DNA of 61,984 nucleotides from Actinomycetota bacterium (GTDB lineage Bacteria > Actinomycetota > Acidimicrobiia > Acidimicrobiales > Ilumatobacteraceae). Under the pieces are notes generated by a model. It was not told the DNA's origin. It did no database searches and saw only the letters and a list, made by a program, of their open reading frames with translations. Numbering within the stretch: the first letter of the stretch is position 1; each line of letters begins with the position of its first letter. Both the position numbers and the translations under genes were made by a program. Shown piece after piece: positions 35,059 to 44,447 of the stretch. The stretch lies in assembly GCA_046095045.1 (NCBI GenBank), contig JBJTIO010000103.1, positions 1 to 61,984 of the forward strand, in the 5' to 3' direction.

Positions 35059-35996
35059 TTCTTCAGTAATTCGGGCCGCATGGTGGCGATCTGACGGCGG
35101 ATGCCGTCGCGCCAATCGATCGACGAATGGAATCCGACGTCGTGCAACTTCTGCAGGTCGGGAACGATCGATGCAATCGTCGCCGTCGTGGGTGCGAACT
35201 TCGGCGTGAGGCTGGTGAGTCGACCCATCTCCTCGCACCAGTCCTCGATCGACACCAGTTGATCGCCTCCCCAGTTGACGATGGTTGCATCGTTGCTGGC
35301 GTACGACATCAGATACGGAATGCTGCGCGTGATGTCCTCGGCGTGGATTGGGGTGTACGTGGTGGGCTGGTCGACGTGAACCGGCACCGCGATGTCGCGC
35401 TCCATCATCATCAGGTGGAACGCCATCCAGCCGTAGTTGTCGCCGTAGGGAACGTTGAGCCGAGCGATCACGGTCGGCACGCCGAGTCGGCGGGCCGTGT
35501 GGGTGACGAGCACCTCACCGGCGATCTTGGAGATGCTGTAGGTGGGCATACCTGGCATCGGTCGGTGACTGTCACCGAGCAGGTCGGTCTCCTTGCGAGC
35601 GACGCCGTGCTTGGGCTCGTACACCGCGGTCGACGAGCAGTGGAAGAAACTCAGCGAATCGCTGCGCGATGCGGCGACTTCCATCAGGTTCGCACTGCCG
35701 TGCGCGTTCGACGCGAAAGCCTCCTCGAAGTTGTTGCTCTTGGCCACGGCGAAGTGCAACACCATGTCGAGGTCGCTCGGCACCTCGTCGAGCTGTCCGG
35801 CGGCCAGATCGATGCTCACCGTCTGCACATCCTTGGCGTGCCACGGCGCGCGGGTGTCGGGATCCTTGAAGCGAGCGGCACCGTACACGGTGTTCCCCGC
35901 GGCGGCCAACGACTCGGCCAACGGTCCGGCCACCCAACCCGTGACGCCGGTGACGAGGATTTTCTTGCCCGTAATCGCTTGCATGTTCTCCCCCAT
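35055..35996 (-). CDS. NAD-dependent epimerase/dehydratase family (extended SDR) protein
   Basis: KKILVTGVTGWVAG Rossmann motif and Y-x3-K (YSISKIA). Start is ATG 35996 (1-nt overlap with the upstream stop) or ATG 35984. Confidence 0.85.
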   Translation of the reverse strand: MGENMQAITGKKILVTGVTGWVAGPLAESLAAAGNTVYGAARFKDPDTRAPWHAKDVQTVSIDLAAGQLDEVPSDLDMVLHFAVAKSNNFEEAFASNAHGSANLMEVAASRSDSLSFFHCSSTAVYEPKHGVARKETDLLGDSHRPMPGMPTYSISKIAGEVLVTHTARRLGVPTVIARLNVPYGDNYGWMAFHLMMMERDIAVPVHVDQPTTYTPIHAEDITRSIPYLMSYASNDATIVNWGGDQLVSIEDWCEEMGRLTSLTPKFAPTTATIASIVPDLQKLHDVGFHSSIDWRDGIRRQIATMRPELLKN

Positions 35997-36790
35997 CACC
36001 ACAGTTGATCGGTGTACGTGTCGGTGCCGAACACGGTGTTCTTGAACGGCGCGGTCCAGAGGTGCGTGGCCAACCCACTCGCCTCGAGTTCGGCTCCGAA
36101 TCGACCGTAGCCCTGCGCCCATTCGGCTTCGGGCGCGTGATCGAGAAAGTGGATCTGTAGGAATCGTTGATCGGCCTTGGGCACGCGCGGCACGTCGGGC
36201 GGCGCATCGGGCAGCAACGGAAGAAGCGTCGTGTAGTTGAACACGTCGGGACCCCACGAAGAGGCGAACGCTTGCGGCGCCCACTTCTGACGCATCCAGT
36301 CACTCATCTGTTGGTGAGTGACTCCGTCCTTCAGTTCGCCGACGTTGACGACGATTCCCGGGTATCCGCGATCGAGCGCCAACTCGATGTTGGTGGTGTT
36401 CTCGGTGCGAGTCATCGACCACTGGTTGTCGTACAACTGGGTGTGAATGTGGGTTCGCTCGGGGAACATGCGCCCGGTCGCGTGGAGATTCTTCACCGTG
36501 TCGACGCTCCAACGGTTCCAGTCGTCGTGATGGCCCTTCAACACCCAATAGATCGCCAGATACGAACCGGTCGAGGTGTCGGGGGTCATCGGTGACTCGG
36601 CCGGGTACCGCAGTGCCTTCAGATCGCGCGTCGCCACGAAGCGATCGCCCGCGAACGAGTACGCACCGACCAACACTCCGCCGTAGAAGTGGTCGCGTTC
36701 GTACCAGCGGTTGTACTCGACCTCGTGACCTTTGTGGGGCTCGACCATCGTGAAGAGCAGGGTGCCCAGTTGGATCGGATACGTCTTCAT
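35996..36790 (-). CDS. conserved hypothetical protein (no family recognised)
   Basis: 264-aa ORF with coding-like composition, e.g. EVEYNRWYERDHFYGG; coupled to the downstream epimerase gene. Confidence 0.7.
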   Translation of the reverse strand: MKTYPIQLGTLLFTMVEPHKGHEVEYNRWYERDHFYGGVLVGAYSFAGDRFVATRDLKALRYPAESPMTPDTSTGSYLAIYWVLKGHHDDWNRWSVDTVKNLHATGRMFPERTHIHTQLYDNQWSMTRTENTTNIELALDRGYPGIVVNVGELKDGVTHQQMSDWMRQKWAPQAFASSWGPDVFNYTTLLPLLPDAPPDVPRVPKADQRFLQIHFLDHAPEAEWAQGYGRFGAELEASGLATHLWTAPFKNTVFGTDTYTDQLW

Positions 36791-37276: not shown

Positions 37277-37903
37277 TCAGTCGAGTCTCCGAGACAACCC
37301 GGCTTTCACGTCGAGCCAATCGCGACGGATGATCGCGAACACCGCGGTGTCGCGCAGCGTTCCTTCCTCACCTGCCACGTAACTCGGACGATGCGACCGC
37401 AACACCCCTTCGAATTCGGCGCCGATGCGCAAGATCGCATTCCGACTCCGCTCGTTGCGCGCGTCGGTGCAGATCGCCACACGCTGCACTTCCCACGTTT
37501 CGAAGGCGTGGGTCAACAACATCAGCTTCGCTTCGGTGTTCACCGCCGTGCGTTGCACCGAAGCGGCGAGCCACGTGCCACCGATCTCCACCTCGTCGGG
37601 AACGGCGGATTCGGCCGTCCTGCGTCCCAACGGGTGACGAATCTCCATGAATCGCGTGCACCCCACCACACGTCCAATCGCACCCGACGTGTCGACCAGA
37701 CACTGAGCGAGCGGGATGACTCTTCCCTCGTCGCGATCGTGCAACAGCGACGCCACGTACGCATCCATCGTGCGCTCGGAATCGGGAACCGCGGTGAAGT
37801 CGTAAGTCGAGCGATCCTCGACGGCGGCCCGCACGAGATCCGGCACATGATCGATCGCGAGTGGCACCAACGCCACGTGACGACCGACGAGGGTCGGGGT
37901 CAT
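37277..37903 (-). CDS. GNAT family N-acetyltransferase (RimJ/RimL-like)
   Basis: ATG 37903 overlaps the EthD stop (ATGA). Acetyltransf_3-like pattern GRHVALVPL...NERSRNAILRIGAEFEG. Confidence 0.85.
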   Translation of the reverse strand: MTPTLVGRHVALVPLAIDHVPDLVRAAVEDRSTYDFTAVPDSERTMDAYVASLLHDRDEGRVIPLAQCLVDTSGAIGRVVGCTRFMEIRHPLGRRTAESAVPDEVEIGGTWLAASVQRTAVNTEAKLMLLTHAFETWEVQRVAICTDARNERSRNAILRIGAEFEGVLRSHRPSYVAGEEGTLRDTAVFAIIRRDWLDVKAGLSRRLD

Positions 37904-38247
37904 TCGCCGATGACGATGCGAGGTTCCTCGGTGAGGATCCAATTCAACGACGACGAGTCGAGGAACCGCGCGGTGTCGGCCATCACCTCGGGGAAGTCGG
38001 GTTCACCCATGTGCGCGAAGAAGTCGGCTGGCGAGTCGAAGTATTGGATCGTCACGCCGTCGAAGTCGGGTTCGGGTTGCTTGCTGCCTTCCGGCGGCCA
38101 TGAGGCGGGGTGCTGCTCGTAGCGACGCACGTACTTGGCCGCCGAACAATTCTTGATGAGCGGAGCGTGCACGTCGAACCAGTAGTCGAGGAACTCCTGG
38201 TGAGTCGTACCGGGCTTGCGCTTCAGCATCGAGATGAGTTTGATCAT
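37900..38247 (-). CDS. EthD family protein
   Basis: MIKLISMLKRKPGTTHQEFLDYW opening is typical of EthD/TIGR02118 proteins. Confidence 0.82.
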   Translation of the reverse strand: MIKLISMLKRKPGTTHQEFLDYWFDVHAPLIKNCSAAKYVRRYEQHPASWPPEGSKQPEPDFDGVTIQYFDSPADFFAHMGEPDFPEVMADTARFLDSSSLNWILTEEPRIVIGE

Positions 38248-38279: not shown

Positions 38280-39059
38280 CTACAAGCCGAGGAACGATCC
38301 GCCGTCGCAGATGATCGTCTGACCAGTGACGAACGCCGAATCGTCGCTCGCGAGGAACAGCGCGACCGAGCCGATGTCATCGGTGATGTCACCGACACGA
38401 CCGAGCGGGGTGCGGGCCTCGATCGCCTGCTGCAACGCCGGATTGCGCTCGAAGGCCGTCAGCAGAGCCGGACTACCCGCGACCGGACCGATGCAATTCA
38501 CGGTCACGCCGTGCGGACCCCATTCGCGCGCCAGGCTCTTGGCGATGGCTCGTTGCGCCGCCTTGGCCGGTGAATACAGCGGGATGTTGGCACTGCCCTC
38601 GACTCCCGACGGTGAGGTGATCAGAATCAATCGACCGCCACCATCAGGACGACGCGAACTCTCGACGAGGTGCGGCATGGCGGCCCGAGCACAAAACAGG
38701 CTGGCCCACACGCCGGTGCGCGACATGTTGTTCCAGTGCTTGTCGATGCGCGCGTCCTCGAGACGGTGCGGGATGCCACCCATGAACGCATTGTGCACGA
38801 CGATGTCGAGACGACCGTGACGATCGACGGTTGTCGCGACACAGTTGTCGACTGACGACGACTCTGACACGTCGGTCACCACGCATTCAGCCCGACCACC
38901 CGCGTCACGAATGGACTGCGCCACCGGCTCTCCGGTGTCGGCTCGTCGTGCGGCCACGATTACGACACACCCTTCCGACGCGAGGCGACGCGCGATGCCC
39001 TCACCCACGCCCTGACCGGCTCCGGTCACGATGGCCACTCGTCCGCTCAGACGGCTCAC
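38280..39059 (-). CDS. SDR family oxidoreductase (intact)
   Basis: GTG 39059 overlaps the upstream stop (GTGA). TGAGQGVGEG, HNAF, Y-x3-K (YSPAKAA). Confidence 0.88.
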   Translation of the reverse strand: MSRLSGRVAIVTGAGQGVGEGIARRLASEGCVVIVAARRADTGEPVAQSIRDAGGRAECVVTDVSESSSVDNCVATTVDRHGRLDIVVHNAFMGGIPHRLEDARIDKHWNNMSRTGVWASLFCARAAMPHLVESSRRPDGGGRLILITSPSGVEGSANIPLYSPAKAAQRAIAKSLAREWGPHGVTVNCIGPVAGSPALLTAFERNPALQQAIEARTPLGRVGDITDDIGSVALFLASDDSAFVTGQTIICDGGSFLGL

Positions 39060-39595
39060 ATCCACAGCCCTCCGTCGCAGACGATCGTCTGACCGGTCAC
39101 GTGCCCGGCCGCCGACGCGCACAACCACGAGACCAAAGAGGTGGGATCGACCTCGCCGGACAGTGCCCGAGGAGCGATCGAGACGGGTCCCGACACCGCA
39201 ACATCGACATCGAACTCGTCGGGCGACAAGGCGACGGCGTTCACCGTCACGCCGTTCGCACCCCACTGTCGAGCCGCCGACTTCACGAGCACCCGAGCGG
39301 CCTCGGCAAACGCGGCGTGCACCGCATGACGATCGCCTCCGGACATCCCGATGGTCGGCACCACCACGACGATCCGCTTGGCTCCCGCATGAAAGGCGGT
39401 CTGAAGCGAAGCGATCAGCCGTTGCATCGGTTGCTCGAAGCAGGAGTCGATTTCGTCGTCGGTCAGACGTTCGATCGGTGTCACCGCTCGACCGCCGTCG
39501 ACTTCGGCCACCACCACCGCCGATTCGATGTCGCTCTGCACCGCATCACGCAAACGTGCCGCCACCGCACAGTCACCATGAACCGTCGCGAGCAT
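39056..39595 (-). CDS. truncated SDR-like protein lacking the glycine-rich cofactor motif and the Tyr/Lys dyad
   Basis: 179 aa; aligns by eye with the C-terminal two-thirds of the neighbouring SDR (…WGANGVTVNAVAL…TGQTIVCDGG). It starts after the first beta-alpha-beta unit, and has H and A where Y and K should be. Confidence 0.7.
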   Translation of the reverse strand: MLATVHGDCAVAARLRDAVQSDIESAVVVAEVDGGRAVTPIERLTDDEIDSCFEQPMQRLIASLQTAFHAGAKRIVVVVPTIGMSGGDRHAVHAAFAEAARVLVKSAARQWGANGVTVNAVALSPDEFDVDVAVSGPVSIAPRALSGEVDPTSLVSWLCASAAGHVTGQTIVCDGGLWM

Positions 39596-40041
39596 CACAG
39601 ACCTCCGACGAGGTGCGCCGACACGTCGCCGTGGGCATCGACCAACATCACGCGTTCGTCGAACCGCCACCGATCCCCGTCATCGCGGACGAATCGGTCG
39701 TGATAACGACCGGAAGCCACCACTTGAAGGGGCAAGACGTCGGGCACCGCTTGCAACACGGTGAACTGCGACCGTGAGGTGGCTTCGTCGGGACCCGTCG
39801 ACTCAATGATCGAGTTGGTGACCAGATGCTTGGTGAGCGGCGAACCGTCGTAGGTGCGAACGAACTTGGCCATCACCGCGCCCACCATCGAACCCGGCAC
39901 CGCGGGATGATCCGGACCCGCCATGAACACTTGTGCCCGTTCGAACAAGGCCGACACACCATCGAAGTCGCCAGCGTCGACGCGCTCGGCGTAGGAGAAG
40001 AGCAGGTTGAGAATCGCCCGCTCGTCGGCCGATGTGAGCAT
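39595..40041 (-). CDS. NTF2-superfamily (SnoaL_4-like) protein
   Basis: ILNLLFSYAERVDAGDFDGVSALF opening. Its stop overlaps the start of the truncated SDR by 1 nt. Confidence 0.78.
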   Translation of the reverse strand: MLTSADERAILNLLFSYAERVDAGDFDGVSALFERAQVFMAGPDHPAVPGSMVGAVMAKFVRTYDGSPLTKHLVTNSIIESTGPDEATSRSQFTVLQAVPDVLPLQVVASGRYHDRFVRDDGDRWRFDERVMLVDAHGDVSAHLVGGL

Positions 40042-40064: not shown

Positions 40065-40919
40065 GTGGCGAGCGTGTCCGAAACGAATGAACCCACTCCC
40101 TCGTGGCCTCTCGCCGGTGAGCAGACCGACGAGATTGTCCGCGCCGCATTTCCGCTCCGCCTCGGTCTCGCCGAGGGCAAGGTTGCTCTCGTCACTGGTG
40201 CCGGGCGTGGCATCGGTGAAGCGACCGCACGATTGTTCGCGACCGAAGGTGCGGCCGTCGTGGTGTGCGACATCGACGTCGCTTCGGCCGAGAAGGTGGC
40301 CCAATCCATTCAGGAGCGCGGCGGCGAAGCTGTCGCCGTCGCGGCCGATCTCACGAAAGAAGACGATGTCGCGGCGGTGATCAACACCGCGATCGATCGC
40401 TACGGGCGTCTCGATTGCGCGGTCAACAACGCGGGCATCAGTGGTCGGTTCGGGTCGTTCATCGATTTGCCGCTCCACGAGTGGCACCAGATGATCAATG
40501 CCAACCTCACGAGCGTCTTCCTCTGCCTCAAGTACGAACTCGGCGTGATGGCGGCCCAAGGATCGGGCGCCATCGTGAACGTGTCGTCGGGGGCCGGTGT
40601 CGTGGCAGCACCCGGGTTGCCTCACTACACGGCGGCCAAGCATGGCGTGCTCGGACTCACCAAGTGCGCGGCGCAGGAATACGCGGCCAAGGGCGTTCGC
40701 GTGAACGCGATCCTTCCCGGCACCACCCGCACGCCGATGATCGAGAACTTCATCAACGGTGATCCGCAGATCGAGAAGATGGTCAGTCGTGGCATCGGAC
40801 GCGGACATCTCGGCGAACCCACCGAGATCGCCGAAGCCGCGGTGTGGTTGTGCAGTGATCGGGCCAGCTTCGTGTGTGGTGAATCGTTGCTGGTCGACGG
40901 CGCCACCGTCTGTCGCTGA
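40065..40919 (+). CDS. SDR family oxidoreductase
   Basis: TGAGRGIGEA, NNAG, Y-x3-K (YTAAKHG). N-terminal ~35-aa extension, so the start is uncertain. Confidence 0.88.
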   Translation: MASVSETNEPTPSWPLAGEQTDEIVRAAFPLRLGLAEGKVALVTGAGRGIGEATARLFATEGAAVVVCDIDVASAEKVAQSIQERGGEAVAVAADLTKEDDVAAVINTAIDRYGRLDCAVNNAGISGRFGSFIDLPLHEWHQMINANLTSVFLCLKYELGVMAAQGSGAIVNVSSGAGVVAAPGLPHYTAAKHGVLGLTKCAAQEYAAKGVRVNAILPGTTRTPMIENFINGDPQIEKMVSRGIGRGHLGEPTEIAEAAVWLCSDRASFVCGESLLVDGATVCR

Positions 40920-40922
40920 CGA

Positions 40923-42026
40923 TCAGCCCCACTCGGCGATGATCTCGCCGATGTCGACCGCACCGGGGTGACCCGGCTCACGGGCCGACGCCGCCGTGCG
41001 CGAGAACCTCGGCGCGATCTGAGCCTGCACCGAGCCGTTCACGTCGACTGTCACACCACGAGCCGCGGTGTGCGGATGCGTCACCACCTCGTGCGGAGCG
41101 AGCACCGGCGCGAAACAGGCGTCGGAACCGTCGAAGATGGTTTCCCATTCGGCGCGCGTGCGAGTGGCGAAGATCGCGGCGAATCGACGTTTGCCTTCGG
41201 CCCATACCGAACGATCGTTCTGACGACTCGCCGACAGAATCTCGTCATCGGTCACCCCGAGACGTTCGAGCAACTCGGCGTAGAACTGCGGCTCGATCGC
41301 GCCCACCGACACCCACTTACCGTCACTCGTTGCGTAGACGTTGTAGAAGTGCGCTCCCCCATCGAGATGATTCGTGCCACGCTCGCTCCAGAAACCGTTC
41401 GTCGCGGCCACGAAGAACGGACCGAGGATCATCGCCGCCCCGTCGACCATCGCAACGTCGATCACTTGACCCATTCCGCTGGTGTGGCGTTCGACGAGTG
41501 CCGCCGACACACCCATCGCCAGCAATAACCCACCACCGGCGAAGTCCCCGAGCATGTTGATCGGCATCGTCGGTGGTTGTCCTTCGTAACCGATGGTGTG
41601 CAACGCGCCCGACAGTGCGATGTAGTTGATGTCGTGTCCGGCGCGATCGACCCACGGGCCACTCTGACCCCAACCGGTCATGCGGGCGAAGACCAGTCGC
41701 GTGTTCCGCTCGCACAACACCGTCGGACCGAGACCGAGTCGTTCGCACACGCCGGGTCGAAACGGGTCGACCAGAACATCGGCGCGATCGACGAGGTCGA
41801 GCAGTCGCGCGCGATCAGCGTCATCTTTCAGGTCGAGCGCAACACCGCGCTTGCCGCGCATCATCGGATTGGTCGCTGGGCGATCGCGTTTCGCGCGCGA
41901 GGCGACCTCGGGTCGGTCGACGGCGATCACGTCGGCCCCGAGATCGGCCAACAGGGCCGCACCATACGGGCCGGGGCCCTGACCCACGAGTTCGACGACT
42001 CGAATACCCGCGAGGGGACCCGTCAT
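40923..42026 (-). CDS. mcr: family III CoA-transferase fold protein, alpha-methylacyl-CoA racemase-like
   Basis: MTGPLAGIRVVELVGQGPGPYGA...LGADVI opening, GHDINYIALSG and GDFAGGG motifs. ATG 42026 chosen; the upstream part of the ORF track overlaps the next gene. Confidence 0.72.
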   Translation of the reverse strand: MTGPLAGIRVVELVGQGPGPYGAALLADLGADVIAVDRPEVASRAKRDRPATNPMMRGKRGVALDLKDDADRARLLDLVDRADVLVDPFRPGVCERLGLGPTVLCERNTRLVFARMTGWGQSGPWVDRAGHDINYIALSGALHTIGYEGQPPTMPINMLGDFAGGGLLLAMGVSAALVERHTSGMGQVIDVAMVDGAAMILGPFFVAATNGFWSERGTNHLDGGAHFYNVYATSDGKWVSVGAIEPQFYAELLERLGVTDDEILSASRQNDRSVWAEGKRRFAAIFATRTRAEWETIFDGSDACFAPVLAPHEVVTHPHTAARGVTVDVNGSVQAQIAPRFSRTAASAREPGHPGAVDIGEIIAEWG

Positions 42027-42028
42027 GT

Positions 42029-43597
42029 TCAGCGGCCCGCGTCCTCGATGGCTCGCTCCTTGGCCCAGCGATAGTCGCTCTTGCCGGCTGGTGAGCGCAC
42101 CATCATCTCGACGAGCGTCAGCTGACGCGGAACTTTGTAACCGGCCACGTGCTTGCGACAGTGTTCCTGCACGCTCTCGAGCGTCGGGGTGGTACCAGCC
42201 CGCGCTTGCACGACCGCCGTCACTCGTTCGCCCCAGCGTTCGTCGGGAACCCCGACAACGACCGCGTCGAAAACCTCGGGATGGCTCTTCAGGGCGTTCT
42301 CCACTTCCTCGGGGAAGATCTTCTCGCCACCGCTGTTGATGCACACCGAACCACGACCGATCAACGTGATCGAACCGTCTTCTTGCATCACCGCGAAATC
42401 GCCGGGGATCGAATAGCGCGTGCCGTCGGGTCCGGTCACGAAGGTGGCCGCCGACTTCTCGGGATCCTTGTGATAGCGCAACGGAATATTTCCCGTGCGC
42501 GCGAGCTTGCCCATCACACCGGCGGGCACCGGACGGAAGTCGTCACCGAGAACCACGGAATCGGGCGCGGCCTTCACCGTGAGGCCGGGTGTCTTCGGCG
42601 CGTCCTTGCCCACCATCGTGATCCCGTTCGCACCGCCCTCGCTCGAACCGACGGCATCGGTCAGAACGATGTTGGGGAACATCGACATGAACTGGTCCTT
42701 GCACGCTTGGGAGAACAGAACCGCACTCGAACTGACGGCGAACATCGACGAGAGGTCGTACTGCGCGCGGTTGTCGACGAGGTGATCGAGCATCGGTCGC
42801 GCCATGGCGTCGCCGGTGATCATCACGAGGTTCACCTTCTCGGCGTCGATGGTGCGGAACACGTCGGCCGGATCGAACTTGGCGCGCAACACCACCTTGT
42901 TGCCGATGAAGCTCTGCCCCATCACGCTCCATTGGGTCGCTCCATGCATCAACGGTGCGATCGGCAGACCGCAGAGGTGAAAACCGTTGCGGCCCTTCTC
43001 GACGAATTGATGTGGTTCGGTGAGTTTGATTCCGGTGGTGATGTCGACGCCGCCACCGAGGGCCATCACCACGTCCTGGTGGCGCCACACCACACCTTTG
43101 GGCATGCCGGTGGTGCCACCCGTGAAAAGCATGTAGATGTCGTCGTTGCTGCGCGGTTCGAAGTCGCGCTCGTCGGACTGCGCAGCCAACGCTGCCTCGA
43201 ACTCTGGTCCGATCACGAGTTGCGGTAGGTCGGGTTGCACCGCGCGGGCCCGATCGGCGAACTCGGGCTCGACGATGAGATACGTGAGATCGGCGTTGCC
43301 GAACAAGTAGGCGAGTTCGTCCTCGACGTAGCGGTAATTGATGTTGATCCATACGGCTCGGATCTTGAAGATCGCCCACAACGACTCGACCCACTCGACG
43401 CGGTTGAGCGCGTAGATCCCCACGTGGTCACCGGGGCGGACGCCTTGCTGACGCAGGTGGTGCGCCAAGCGATTCGCCCGTCGGTCCATCTCGAGGTAGG
43501 TGCGACGCACGTTCTCATCGACCACGTACTCGCGGTCGGGCCACTCGTCGACCGACGCCTCGAAGAGATCCGCGATGTTGAAGGTGCGAGCAGGCAT
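42029..43597 (-). CDS. acyl-CoA synthetase, FadD19/FadD17-like (steroid/branched-acid CoA ligase type)
   Basis: NIADLFE..VDEWPDR opening, NINYRYVEDELAYLF, AMP motif FTGGTTGMPKG. Divergent from an echA19-like crotonase, as in mycobacteria. Confidence 0.8.
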   Translation of the reverse strand: MPARTFNIADLFEASVDEWPDREYVVDENVRRTYLEMDRRANRLAHHLRQQGVRPGDHVGIYALNRVEWVESLWAIFKIRAVWININYRYVEDELAYLFGNADLTYLIVEPEFADRARAVQPDLPQLVIGPEFEAALAAQSDERDFEPRSNDDIYMLFTGGTTGMPKGVVWRHQDVVMALGGGVDITTGIKLTEPHQFVEKGRNGFHLCGLPIAPLMHGATQWSVMGQSFIGNKVVLRAKFDPADVFRTIDAEKVNLVMITGDAMARPMLDHLVDNRAQYDLSSMFAVSSSAVLFSQACKDQFMSMFPNIVLTDAVGSSEGGANGITMVGKDAPKTPGLTVKAAPDSVVLGDDFRPVPAGVMGKLARTGNIPLRYHKDPEKSAATFVTGPDGTRYSIPGDFAVMQEDGSITLIGRGSVCINSGGEKIFPEEVENALKSHPEVFDAVVVGVPDERWGERVTAVVQARAGTTPTLESVQEHCRKHVAGYKVPRQLTLVEMMVRSPAGKSDYRWAKERAIEDAGR

Positions 43598-43646
43598 GTG
43601 AATGTGCTACCACAGAACGCACACAACGAGGGAAAACGGAGTCGAC

Positions 43647-44447
43647 ATGTCGGGGACCGAGCATCTACTGGTCGAGCAAGAGGGTCACACGTTGATCGTC
43701 ACCATGAATCGTCCCGAGGCCAAGAACGCCCTCAGCCCGGCGATGATCGTCGGTCTCGCCGATGCCTGGGTCCGACTCAACGAGGACGACGACCTGCGCT
43801 GCGCGATCCTCACCGGTTCGGGCGGATCGTTCTGCACCGGCATGGACCTCAAGGCCCGCGCCAACGACGACGCCGGACCGAACCCCTACCAAGAGCGTTG
43901 GGCCGCCGACCCCGATCTCCACTGGAAGGCCCTGCTGCGTCATTACCGCTTGCGCAAACCGCTGATCGCCGCGGTCGAGGGTTACGCCGTCGCGGGTGGC
44001 ACCGAGATTCTGCAAGCCACGCATCTGCGGGTCGCCGGAGAGAGCGCGACGTTCGGAGTGTTCGAAGCGCGTCGCGGTTTGTTCCCCGTCGGTGGTAGCA
44101 CCGTTCGACTGCAGCGTCAGATCGGTTACACGAACGCGCTCGAGATGTTGCTCACAGCCCGCGGTTACACGGCGAGCGAAGCCCGAGAGATCGGATTGAT
44201 CGGACACGTCGTGCCCGACGGCACCGCGTTGGCCAAGGCGAAGGAACTGGCCGACATGATTTGCGCCAACGGCCCACTCGCCGTCGAGGCCATCTTGAAG
44301 TCGGTGCAGGAGACCGCGTCGATGCCCGAGGCCGAGGCGTTGAAACTAGAGTTCGAAATCGGTTGGCCGATCTTCAGCACGAACGATTCGAAAGAGGGCC
44401 CACGAGCATTCGCCGAGAAGCGCGCGCCCAACTGGACGCGCACCTGA
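43647..44447 (+). CDS. enoyl-CoA hydratase, EchA19-like by position
   Basis: Crotonase fold (LIVTMNRPEAKNAL, GSGGSFCTGMDLK, EGYAVAGGTE). ATG 43647. Confidence 0.85.
   Translation: MSGTEHLLVEQEGHTLIVTMNRPEAKNALSPAMIVGLADAWVRLNEDDDLRCAILTGSGGSFCTGMDLKARANDDAGPNPYQERWAADPDLHWKALLRHYRLRKPLIAAVEGYAVAGGTEILQATHLRVAGESATFGVFEARRGLFPVGGSTVRLQRQIGYTNALEMLLTARGYTASEAREIGLIGHVVPDGTALAKAKELADMICANGPLAVEAILKSVQETASMPEAEALKLEFEIGWPIFSTNDSKEGPRAFAEKRAPNWTRT

Follow-up and report, generated by a model that had tools for sequence, protein, structure and literature searches.

What purpose could be served by a protein that belongs to the SDR family but has lost its catalytic residues together with a part of its fold, and what is its relation to the intact SDR encoded next to it? 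This question is raised by three consecutive minus-strand genes in a stretch of 61,984 nucleotides of contig JBJTIO010000103.1 from a bacterium of the Acidimicrobiia (the window). The upstream gene (39595..40041) codes for an NTF2-like SnoaL_4 protein of 148 residues (Pfam PF13577, E 1.3e-19), the middle gene (39056..39595) for a short, catalytically dead SDR-like protein of 179 residues with only partial SDR matches in Pfam and NCBIfam, and the third gene (38280..39059), starting with GTG, for a classical SDR of 259 residues matching Pfam adh_short_C2 over its full length (167 bits). As described in an initial annotation of this DNA, the three genes are joined by overlaps: in TGATG at 39595, the TGA of the SnoaL_4 gene and the ATG of the 179-residue open reading frame have one A in common, and in GTGA at 39056-39059 the TGA of the latter overlaps with the GTG start of the intact SDR. 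We could equally confirm from the sequence that two further genes follow in the same direction, with an EthD-domain protein of 115 residues (37900..38247, minus strand; PF07110, E 7e-19) located 3′ of the intact SDR after a gap of 32 nucleotides and an ATGA coupling this gene to a GNAT acetyltransferase of 208 residues (37277..37903, minus strand; Acetyltransf_3, E 1e-12). On the same strand, we find a conserved protein of 264 residues without Pfam or NCBIfam match (35996..36790). On the other side of the three genes, a full-length SDR of 284 residues is transcribed divergently (40065..40919, plus strand; adh_short_C2, 225 bits), next to a family III CoA-transferase/racemase-like gene (about 40923-42030, minus strand), an AMP-binding acyl-CoA ligase (42029-43597, minus strand) and a crotonase (43602-44447, plus strand), the latter three assigned by synteny with the Pfam-annotated loci L004 and L006.

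The Pfam profile adh_short_C2 covers the 179-residue protein over positions 113-235 only (31 bits), the match to adh_short is limited to positions 86-179, and in BLASTP residues 52-179 align with residues 123-257 of the intact SDR at 31% identity. In the alignment to the intact SDR, the position of the catalytic Tyr is occupied by His, the Lys by Ala and the Ser by Pro80. The TGxxxGxG cofactor loop is absent from the N-terminus (residues 1-20, MLATVHGDCAVAARLRDAVQ), where the Gly pattern, GxGxLA in relatives, reads HGDC. The absence of this loop and of the Tyr/Lys dyad had been recognized previously, and the loss extends to the catalytic Ser. Residues 25-179 encompass SDR strand 4 through strand 7, and the protein terminates in GGLWM. 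Its AF2 model is of high confidence (pLDDT 93.8, pTM 0.91) and finds FabG and butanediol dehydrogenase in Foldseek, with TMq values of 0.6-0.7 and TMt values of 0.45-0.54 against SDR structures, about two-thirds of the SDR fold being present. The protein had been proposed to start after the first β-α-β unit, a view in line with profile alignments that place residues 3-8 at SDR positions ~63-70. Longer relatives contradict this view and show residues 1-20 as vestigial, probably comprising remains of strand 1 and of a degenerate GxG loop, followed by the beginning of helix 1. The series of these relatives suggests that the loss was internal and covered roughly the stretch from strand 2 via helix 2 and strand 3 to helix 3. 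As claimed initially, the missing N-terminus is not hidden in another frame, since that DNA encodes the SnoaL_4 protein, whose 70.8 bits (gathering cut-off 24) and coverage of profile positions 3-125 of 126 mark the gene as complete. A longer start can also be ruled out, as the sole in-frame candidate, a GTG at 39670, adds 25 Arg-rich residues that are not conserved in homologues and overlap with the complete SnoaL_4 gene, instead of a Rossmann N-terminus.

The appearance of an SDR fragment and its weak Pfam scores might indicate a decaying remnant of a gene, or an artefact of assembly or annotation, an explanation that we consider refuted for practical purposes. We have identified 228 homologues of mostly 177-200 residues. 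In a library comprising 1.84 billion representatives, 36 clusters match the protein with E<=1e-30, and relaxing the cut-off to E<=1e-10 raises this number to 452. The ends of the protein are conserved in hundreds of sequences, and its fold is confidently predicted. Compared to the 98%-identical copy L119, the gene shows synonymous differences in 15 codons and non-synonymous ones in 3, and its pN/pS of 0.07 is close to the values of 0.04 and 0 of its neighbours. Contigs from four independent metagenome studies span both gene junctions and differ by substitutions but not by a single indel, which rules out the assembly error that had initially been considered. The 179-residue protein is thus a real protein under purifying selection. 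Another reading, namely that the short protein itself catalyses a reaction via non-canonical residues or a different cofactor, appears very improbable. It could draw on the His at the Tyr position of the window copy, on the retention of the Tyr in full-length dead relatives and on a GxGxxA...acidic pattern in the dead forms of family f2, which resembles a dinucleotide-binding fingerprint. However, the His is not conserved, with Gln, Val, Thr or Ile found at this position in other members, Ser (replaced by Pro in a conserved Pro-Thr) and Lys (replaced by Ala, Val, Leu or Met) are lost in all forms, and the Gly pattern has decayed in the window. Canonical TGxxxGxG and NNAG motifs are absent from the family, and members of 151-156 residues lack the N-terminal unit altogether, which is thus not essential. 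Dead relatives come in lengths of about 248, 226, 190-206, 180-190 and 151-156 residues, and since Ser and Lys are already gone in every class, these sequences suggest that the loss of activity is older than the shortening and that the shortening was graded, as expected if only the C-terminal two-thirds of the protein matters. The Tyr of the full-length forms would leave room for a residual or altered chemistry in those proteins.

Residues that are invariant in the family alignment include VKSAARQW, TGQT, DGG and the C-terminal Met, and they are located in αE, αF (VKSAARQW), strand 7 and the extreme C-terminus. In classical SDR tetramers, αE, αF, the last strand and the C-terminus constitute subunit interfaces. 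The motifs KSxARxWG and TGxTxxxDGG are intensified versions of motifs conserved in all SDRs for folding, and their conservation thus provides weak evidence for an interface. Weak contig matches in mycobacteria and Rhodococcus (L027-L029, L046, L053) turned out to be ordinary full-length SDRs that are unpaired and were rejected as equivalents.

In contrast to its short neighbour, the intact SDR contains the motifs TGAGQGVG, the catalytic Ser and YSPAK, and it ends in CDGGSFLGL; among solved structures, 5jy1 is its closest relative (E 1.6e-45). In each of 50 loci across the Acidimicrobiia, the dead gene is immediately followed by an orthologue of this protein, with identities of 58-91% (45% in the distant L020) compared to 38-70% for the dead gene. 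The two genes share the same relative reading frame in all but one of these loci (49/50), as expected for stop/start overlaps of 1 or 4 nucleotides, and with 49 pairs in the +2 and one in the +1 frame, none of the 50 contains an in-frame fusion or read-through of dead and active chains. An orthologue of the active SDR with at least 60% identity is found in 35 of 401 genomes of the class and adjoins the dead gene in 34, the exception being situated at a contig end. The dead family as a whole is present in at least 57 of the 401 sampled Acidimicrobiia genomes, often in several copies. The conserved unit is the pair of dead and intact SDR, not the trio. The initial view of a pseudo-enzyme subunit kept for pairing with the intact SDR is indirectly supported by the purifying selection, the invariable adjacency, the retention of those parts of the fold that make subunit contacts in SDRs and the precedent of BbsCD (see below), whereas an obligate membership of the NTF2-like protein in this unit is not supported. 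Adjacency and coupling of the two SDR genes prove co-expression, not the formation of a complex. An origin of the pair by tandem duplication is suggestive only, with KSxARxWG and the same best PDB match (5jy1) shared by both chains, but the active chain being at least as distant from the dead one as from the divergent neighbouring SDR in BLAST comparisons.

We propose, with a probability of about 0.6, that the 179-residue protein acts as non-catalytic partner (α) of the downstream intact SDR (β), where we infer heteromer, stoichiometry and substrate. Both chains would be made together by translational coupling and assemble into a mixed SDR oligomer, most likely α2β2, in which NAD(P) binding and turnover would be confined to β. 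The α-subunit would contribute the usual SDR contacts, consisting of the two long helices corresponding to αE and αF, the last strand and the C-terminal tail, by which it would stabilize β and might shape its substrate groove. If α does no chemistry, its cofactor-binding half would have become dispensable and could have been eroded step by step within this lineage. The pair probably oxidises the hydroxyl of a bulky branched acyl-CoA, such as a 3-hydroxyacyl-CoA made by crotonase, presumably as part of the surrounding beta-oxidation-like cluster of the sterol-side-chain type. In all lineages, the neighbours of the pair are acyl-CoA enzymes or a P450. Moreover, two independent samples (including L120) contain a natural fusion of a full crotonase with a short dead SDR, with a partner SDR that is 51% identical to the one of the window located immediately downstream, supporting a link of the pair to a beta-oxidation-like acyl-CoA pathway. 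The P450 found directly upstream in other families leaves an alcohol other than a 3-hydroxyacyl-CoA conceivable. A bolder version of this proposal, which is possible though doubtful, regards the shortened subunit as a free-standing counterpart of the structural subdomain of a ketoreductase (KR), turned into an assembly hub that holds the catalytic SDR in a heteromer. The surface laid bare when the cofactor-binding half was lost would either dock the enzyme preceding in the pathway, the crotonase to which it is fused in some lineages, or widen the cleft so as to accommodate a bulky sterol-like acyl-CoA. The series, ranging from 248 down to 151 residues, would in this case record the stepwise minimization of a pseudoenzyme to a pure scaffold.

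Both the fusion and the gene order have also to be considered in light of other partners. The fusion would be compatible with an adaptor or regulator acting on another enzyme of the pathway, such as crotonase, CoA-transferase or thiolase-like proteins, and not as subunit of the neighbouring SDR, and there is precedent in an inactive alanine-dehydrogenase-like pseudoenzyme that regulates an unrelated enzyme, a CoA-transferase (bioRxiv 10.1101/2025.10.31.685773). We consider this role unlikely because the intact SDR is the only invariant neighbour over the 50 loci, whereas crotonase, CoA-transferase and SnoaL_4 come and go, and because even the fusion locus retains its partner SDR, which is better described by a three-way complex than by an SDR-independent function. 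Less likely still is the three-gene isomerase/reductase unit of the initial annotation, in which the NTF2-like protein, the dead and the intact SDR would be obligate components and the former might replace the lost N-terminal half. The overlap of all three genes in the window, the same order in L004-L010 and L090, and a coupled upstream gene that is always present with the shortest dead forms (151-156 residues) would be in its favour. The search for the same cassette in other genomes found the trio in these loci only, and it is this pattern of co-occurrence that rules out SnoaL_4 as obligate third member. In other loci, the position is filled by a protein of 362 residues or a P450, or else by divergent SnoaL_4, SDR or acyl-CoA dehydrogenase genes. 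The 362-residue protein (L001 and L013) is unrelated and has no significant match in Pfam, and short forms without co-directional SnoaL_4 are found in L012, L014 and L091-L094 as well as in the whole of family f2. The SnoaL_4 protein itself has only weak relatives in the PDB (best E-value 1e-3), none of them close and characterised. SnoaL_4 is thus a lineage-variable accessory gene outside the conserved core.

The proposed pairing of a dead with an active SDR resembles known systems. BbsCD is reported to be an α2β2 SDR in which two inactive subunits support two active ones, and it similarly originates from neighbouring SDR genes, a catalytic and a catalytically dead one, as found here in 50 of 50 loci. 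It acts on a bulky branched hydroxyacyl-CoA as part of a beta-oxidation-like operon with family III CoA-transferase, crotonase and a thiolase with zinc-finger subunit, to which the gene set of the window is similar in flavour. BbsC is reportedly a full-length SDR. The dead chain of the window, in contrast, lacks about a third of the fold, its heteromer is putative, and the hosts of the pair, unlike that of BbsCD, are aerobic freshwater Acidimicrobiia. Our PDB comparison of the active chain and a full-length dead relative did not reveal orthology to BbsC or BbsD: BbsD (7pcs_B) is a generic match to the two, with E-values of 1.3e-32, a middle rank among the matches of the active chain, and 1.3e-20, and scores much worse than the best match 5jy1, and BbsC is not among the best 60 matches of the full-length dead relative. 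The FabG-type 3-oxoacyl-ACP reductases are the closest solved relatives of the 179-residue protein (3osu, E 9e-17, TMq 0.71) and share a similar C-terminus (GGMYM compared to GGLWM), but they form homotetramers of full-length active chains with TGxxxGxG and S-Y-K, whereas the short protein has neither these motifs nor the full length.

In human HSD17B8/CBR4 ketoacyl reductase, both subunits are of full length and bind cofactors. Like petunia benzaldehyde synthase (α2β2), this enzyme is a heterotetramer of two different SDR chains, and chains of its structures (PDB 4cql, 4cqm), of which the title of 4cqm specifies NAD and NADP as bound, are among the Foldseek matches of the 179-residue model. 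Both subunits of the petunia enzyme are members of the SDR family (PMC13418739), and in neither system is a subunit truncated as in the window. Truncation is a feature of the structural subdomain of polyketide synthase (PKS) KRs, where a Rossmann fold that does not bind NADPH only supports the catalytic subdomain (PMC11228615). As in this subdomain and the pseudo-KR of animal fatty acid synthase (FAS), the short protein is SDR-derived, truncated and devoid of cofactor motifs, with a putative pairing. In PKS and FAS both parts reside on the same polypeptide, whereas here the truncated part is a protein of its own, made by translational coupling, and this arrangement in trans instead of cis makes the structural KR an analogy and not a case of membership. 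Common descent of the two appears unlikely. Most likely, the pair represents a known kind of arrangement, a dead SDR beside an active one, though reduced to an unusual extent.

Very few heteromeric SDRs with a dead subunit are known, and in those compared here the dead chain is of full length. What is new is a family-wide dead chain whose cofactor-binding half was lost in graded steps. This natural deletion experiment would reveal how little of an SDR suffices to support a partner, and it has a parallel, here in the form of a separate protein, in the structural KR subdomain of PKS and FAS. Current annotations name the genes concerned oxidoreductases or FabG, functions that they cannot have, and the crotonase fusion offers a testable handle on an uncharacterised catabolic cluster of the lipid or sterol type in abundant freshwater bacteria.

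The remaining neighbours are conserved to variable degree. EthD follows the pair in the majority of loci from the window's own family, and GNAT is kept in L004, L005, L009 and L014 and missing from L006 and L010. Homologues of the 264-residue protein (56-91% identity) are located downstream of the pair in L001-L010, L012-L014, L094 and L099, and the position of the divergently transcribed SDR is also filled in L004 and L006.

On the minus strand of the window, three genes are joined by overlaps, as described in the initial annotation. A complete gene of the SnoaL_4/NTF2-like family (39595-40041) ends in a TGA whose final A also opens the ATG start codon of a 179-codon open reading frame (39056-39595), and the TGA of the latter overlaps in a GTGA with the GTG start of a 259-codon intact SDR (38280-39059), which is matched by Pfam over its full length. 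The EthD gene, located 32 nt further downstream (37900-38247), and the ATGA-coupled GNAT gene (37277-37903), both assigned by Pfam, continue in the same direction, again as previously noted, and are followed on the same strand by a gene encoding a 264-residue protein (35996-36790) with the sequence HKGHEVEYNRWYERDHFY near its N-terminus and no match in Pfam or NCBIfam.

The 179-residue product matches SDR profiles of Pfam only in their C-terminal part (adh_short_C2 positions 113-235, adh_short 86-179) and its residues 52-179 align in BLASTP with residues 123-257 of the intact SDR at 31% identity, in line with the proposed resemblance to the C-terminal part of its neighbor. The same alignment bears out the predicted loss of the Tyr/Lys dyad, with Tyr replaced by His and Lys by Ala, and shows that the catalytic Ser is also gone (Pro80). 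The sole longer in-frame start would add 25 Arg-rich residues that overlap the 3' end of the SnoaL_4 gene and are absent from homologues, which confirms that there is no hidden N-terminus. A model of the short SDR obtained by AlphaFold2 with the family alignment as input (pLDDT 93.8, pTM 0.91) is matched in Foldseek to classical SDRs, including butanediol dehydrogenase, FabG and the human HSD17B8/CBR4 complex, with TM-scores of 0.6-0.7 when normalized to the query but only 0.45-0.54 when normalized to the target, indicating that about two-thirds of an SDR are present. The initial annotation had placed the start of the chain after the first β-α-β unit. Although the cofactor loop of this unit is indeed lost, residues 1-20 (MLATVHGDCAVAARLRDAVQ) are, in light of intermediates found within the family, best read as what remains of strand 1, of the Gly loop and of the first helix, in which case the deletion would be internal. 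Alignments to generic SDR profiles instead place these residues at positions ~63-85.

These intermediates emerged from an alignment of the dead genes of 30 genomes of the class Acidimicrobiia with the intact SDR, which defines five length classes that track taxonomy. The longest forms (~246-249 residues; family f33, genera g127 and g120) retain every SDR element and contain a degenerate VTGAxQPLGRG loop, whereas forms of 218-242 residues (f33 genera g100, g70 and g168, and family f49) are devoid of the second helix and the third strand. In family f2, which belongs to the same order as the window, proteins of 189-206 residues proceed from strand 1 via VGxGPLA, a helix and a short strand 2 directly to strand 4. 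Proteins of 179-190 residues from the family of the window (f1) contain strand 1, GxG and a short helix before strand 4, and the shortest forms of 151-156 residues (loci L090, L001 and L013) begin at strand 4. In every class the catalytic Ser is a Pro and the Lys is replaced and followed by a conserved Glu, which implies that the chain was dead before it was shortened and then lost its cofactor-binding half piecemeal. The Tyr is kept only in the longest forms, with Leu found in f49 and Trp in f2. The ~195-residue forms of f2 (loci L095-L101) start with VGxGPLAxxLxxxLxxxG followed by a short strand ending in an acidic residue, a pattern that recalls the classical GxGxxA dinucleotide-binding fingerprint more than the TGxxxGxG of SDRs.

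A short and catalytically incompetent gene of this kind could reflect a pseudogene or an artefact. Among 5.8 billion clustered proteins, 228 relatives were identified, nearly all 156-200 and in majority 177-179 residues long, whose sources are metagenomes of freshwater and lakes as well as MAGs of Actinomycetota or Ilumatobacteraceae. When 1.84 billion representatives were searched exhaustively with a profile, 36 clusters scored E<=1e-30 and 452 scored E<=1e-10. In an alignment of 48 family members, invariant positions comprise E54 and P56 in the first long helix, a run of eight residues (V104-K-S-A-A-R-Q-W111) in the second, T167-G-Q-T and D174-G-G in the last strand, and the C-terminal Met. 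Between the short gene and its 98%-identical counterpart from a different sample (L119), 15 codons differ synonymously and 3 non-synonymously (pN/pS of 0.07, compared to 0.04 for the intact SDR and 0 for EthD). Finally, both gene junctions are spanned in contigs of four independent metagenome studies, which differ by substitutions only, with no indels. Together with the confident fold, these results rule out an artefact or pseudogene.

The initial annotation had also proposed that the SnoaL_4 gene and both SDRs might form an isomerase/reductase unit. With the family profile, we screened 401 genomes of this class and inspected the 30 best loci together with 20 from other searches, finding an orthologue of the intact SDR directly downstream of the dead gene in all 50 cases, in 49 of them in the same relative frame (+2), matching stop/start overlaps of 1 or 4 nt. 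The orthologues are 58-91% identical to the intact SDR of the window, except for 45% in the distant locus L020, while the dead genes share only 38-70%. Conversely, among 35 genomes with an intact-SDR orthologue of at least 60% identity, all but one, in which the gene is located at a contig end, contain the dead gene directly upstream. A co-directional SnoaL_4 gene is found upstream only in the window, L004-L010 and L090. Elsewhere the slot is occupied by a 362-residue protein without significant Pfam match (L001, L013), a divergently transcribed SnoaL_4 gene (L091), a divergent SDR (L094), a divergent acyl-CoA dehydrogenase (f2) or a cytochrome P450 (f33 and relatives, L016). The three-gene cassette recurs in only some of these loci, the proposed isomerase/reductase unit is unsupported and the conserved unit is the pair. 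Several genomes harbor two or more paralogous pairs at different loci (G019, G039, G248, G228, G335, G278, G160, G175), and this dead-plus-active architecture was evidently duplicated and reused. Both SDRs are absent from the 97% complete genome G163, which belongs to the same genus as the window, and likewise from most genomes of the window's family, which defines the cluster as an accessory trait.

Invariable adjacency, translational coupling, purifying selection and the loss of all catalytic and cofactor-binding features are, as strong although indirect genomic evidence, best explained if the short SDR is a non-catalytic partner subunit in a mixed oligomer with the intact SDR, where it would contact the latter without performing catalysis of its own. 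Two long helices, the last strand and the C-terminal tail constitute the subunit interfaces of classical SDR tetramers, and the same elements are retained and most conserved in the short SDR. Inactive SDR subunits reportedly have a bacterial precedent in the α2β2 enzyme BbsCD, where two of them support two active subunits. Its likeness to the pair is a functional analogy and not orthology: BbsD matches the intact SDR generically (1.3e-32, compared to 1.6e-45 for the best match 5jy1) and BbsC is not among the top 60 matches of a full-length dead relative. A parallel in truncation is provided by the structural subdomain of PKS ketoreductases, a truncated Rossmann fold that does not bind NADPH and only supports the catalytic subdomain (PMC11228615), although its counterpart in the window would be a separate protein. 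This kind of system is already known, and what is new is the stepwise shortening of its dead chain across a widespread family in Acidimicrobiia.

The neighborhood of the pair relates throughout to acyl-CoA metabolism, with a conserved order of thiolase, crotonase, acyl-CoA ligase, family III CoA-transferase, divergent SDR, SnoaL_4, short SDR, SDR, EthD, sometimes GNAT, a 250-264-residue protein and an epimerase-like protein. A natural fusion of 496 residues, present in two independent samples (L120:2978-4468 and L121:3581-5071), joins a crotonase domain that is complete (ECH_1 positions 4-249 of 251) with a short dead SDR, and the gene after it encodes a partner SDR that shares 51% identity with that of the window. 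This Rosetta-stone fusion links the pair to the enoyl-CoA hydratase step and suggests that it may act directly thereafter as hydroxyacyl-CoA dehydrogenase, and that the dead chain is capable of acting as a tether. Families whose dead chains are full-length encode a cytochrome P450 directly upstream of the pair (L016:2553-3770, L105, L107, L111), a context unlike that of the window, and the pair may instead oxidize an alcohol made by the P450. In L016, a CMD-family (AhpD-like) gene follows the pair. The 362-378-residue protein replacing SnoaL_4 in L001 (4916-6004) and L013 (2725-3780), for which the best Pfam hit, DUF7064 at E 0.002, falls below the cut-off, overlaps with the shortest (156-residue) dead SDRs downstream. 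The 264-residue protein has homologues (56-91% identity) that travel with the pair in most related loci, and in L013 the corresponding gene immediately follows that of the partner SDR. The GNAT gene, positioned between EthD and the 264-residue protein, is found in L004, L005, L009 and L014 but not in L006 and L010, and looks like a lineage-specific insertion.
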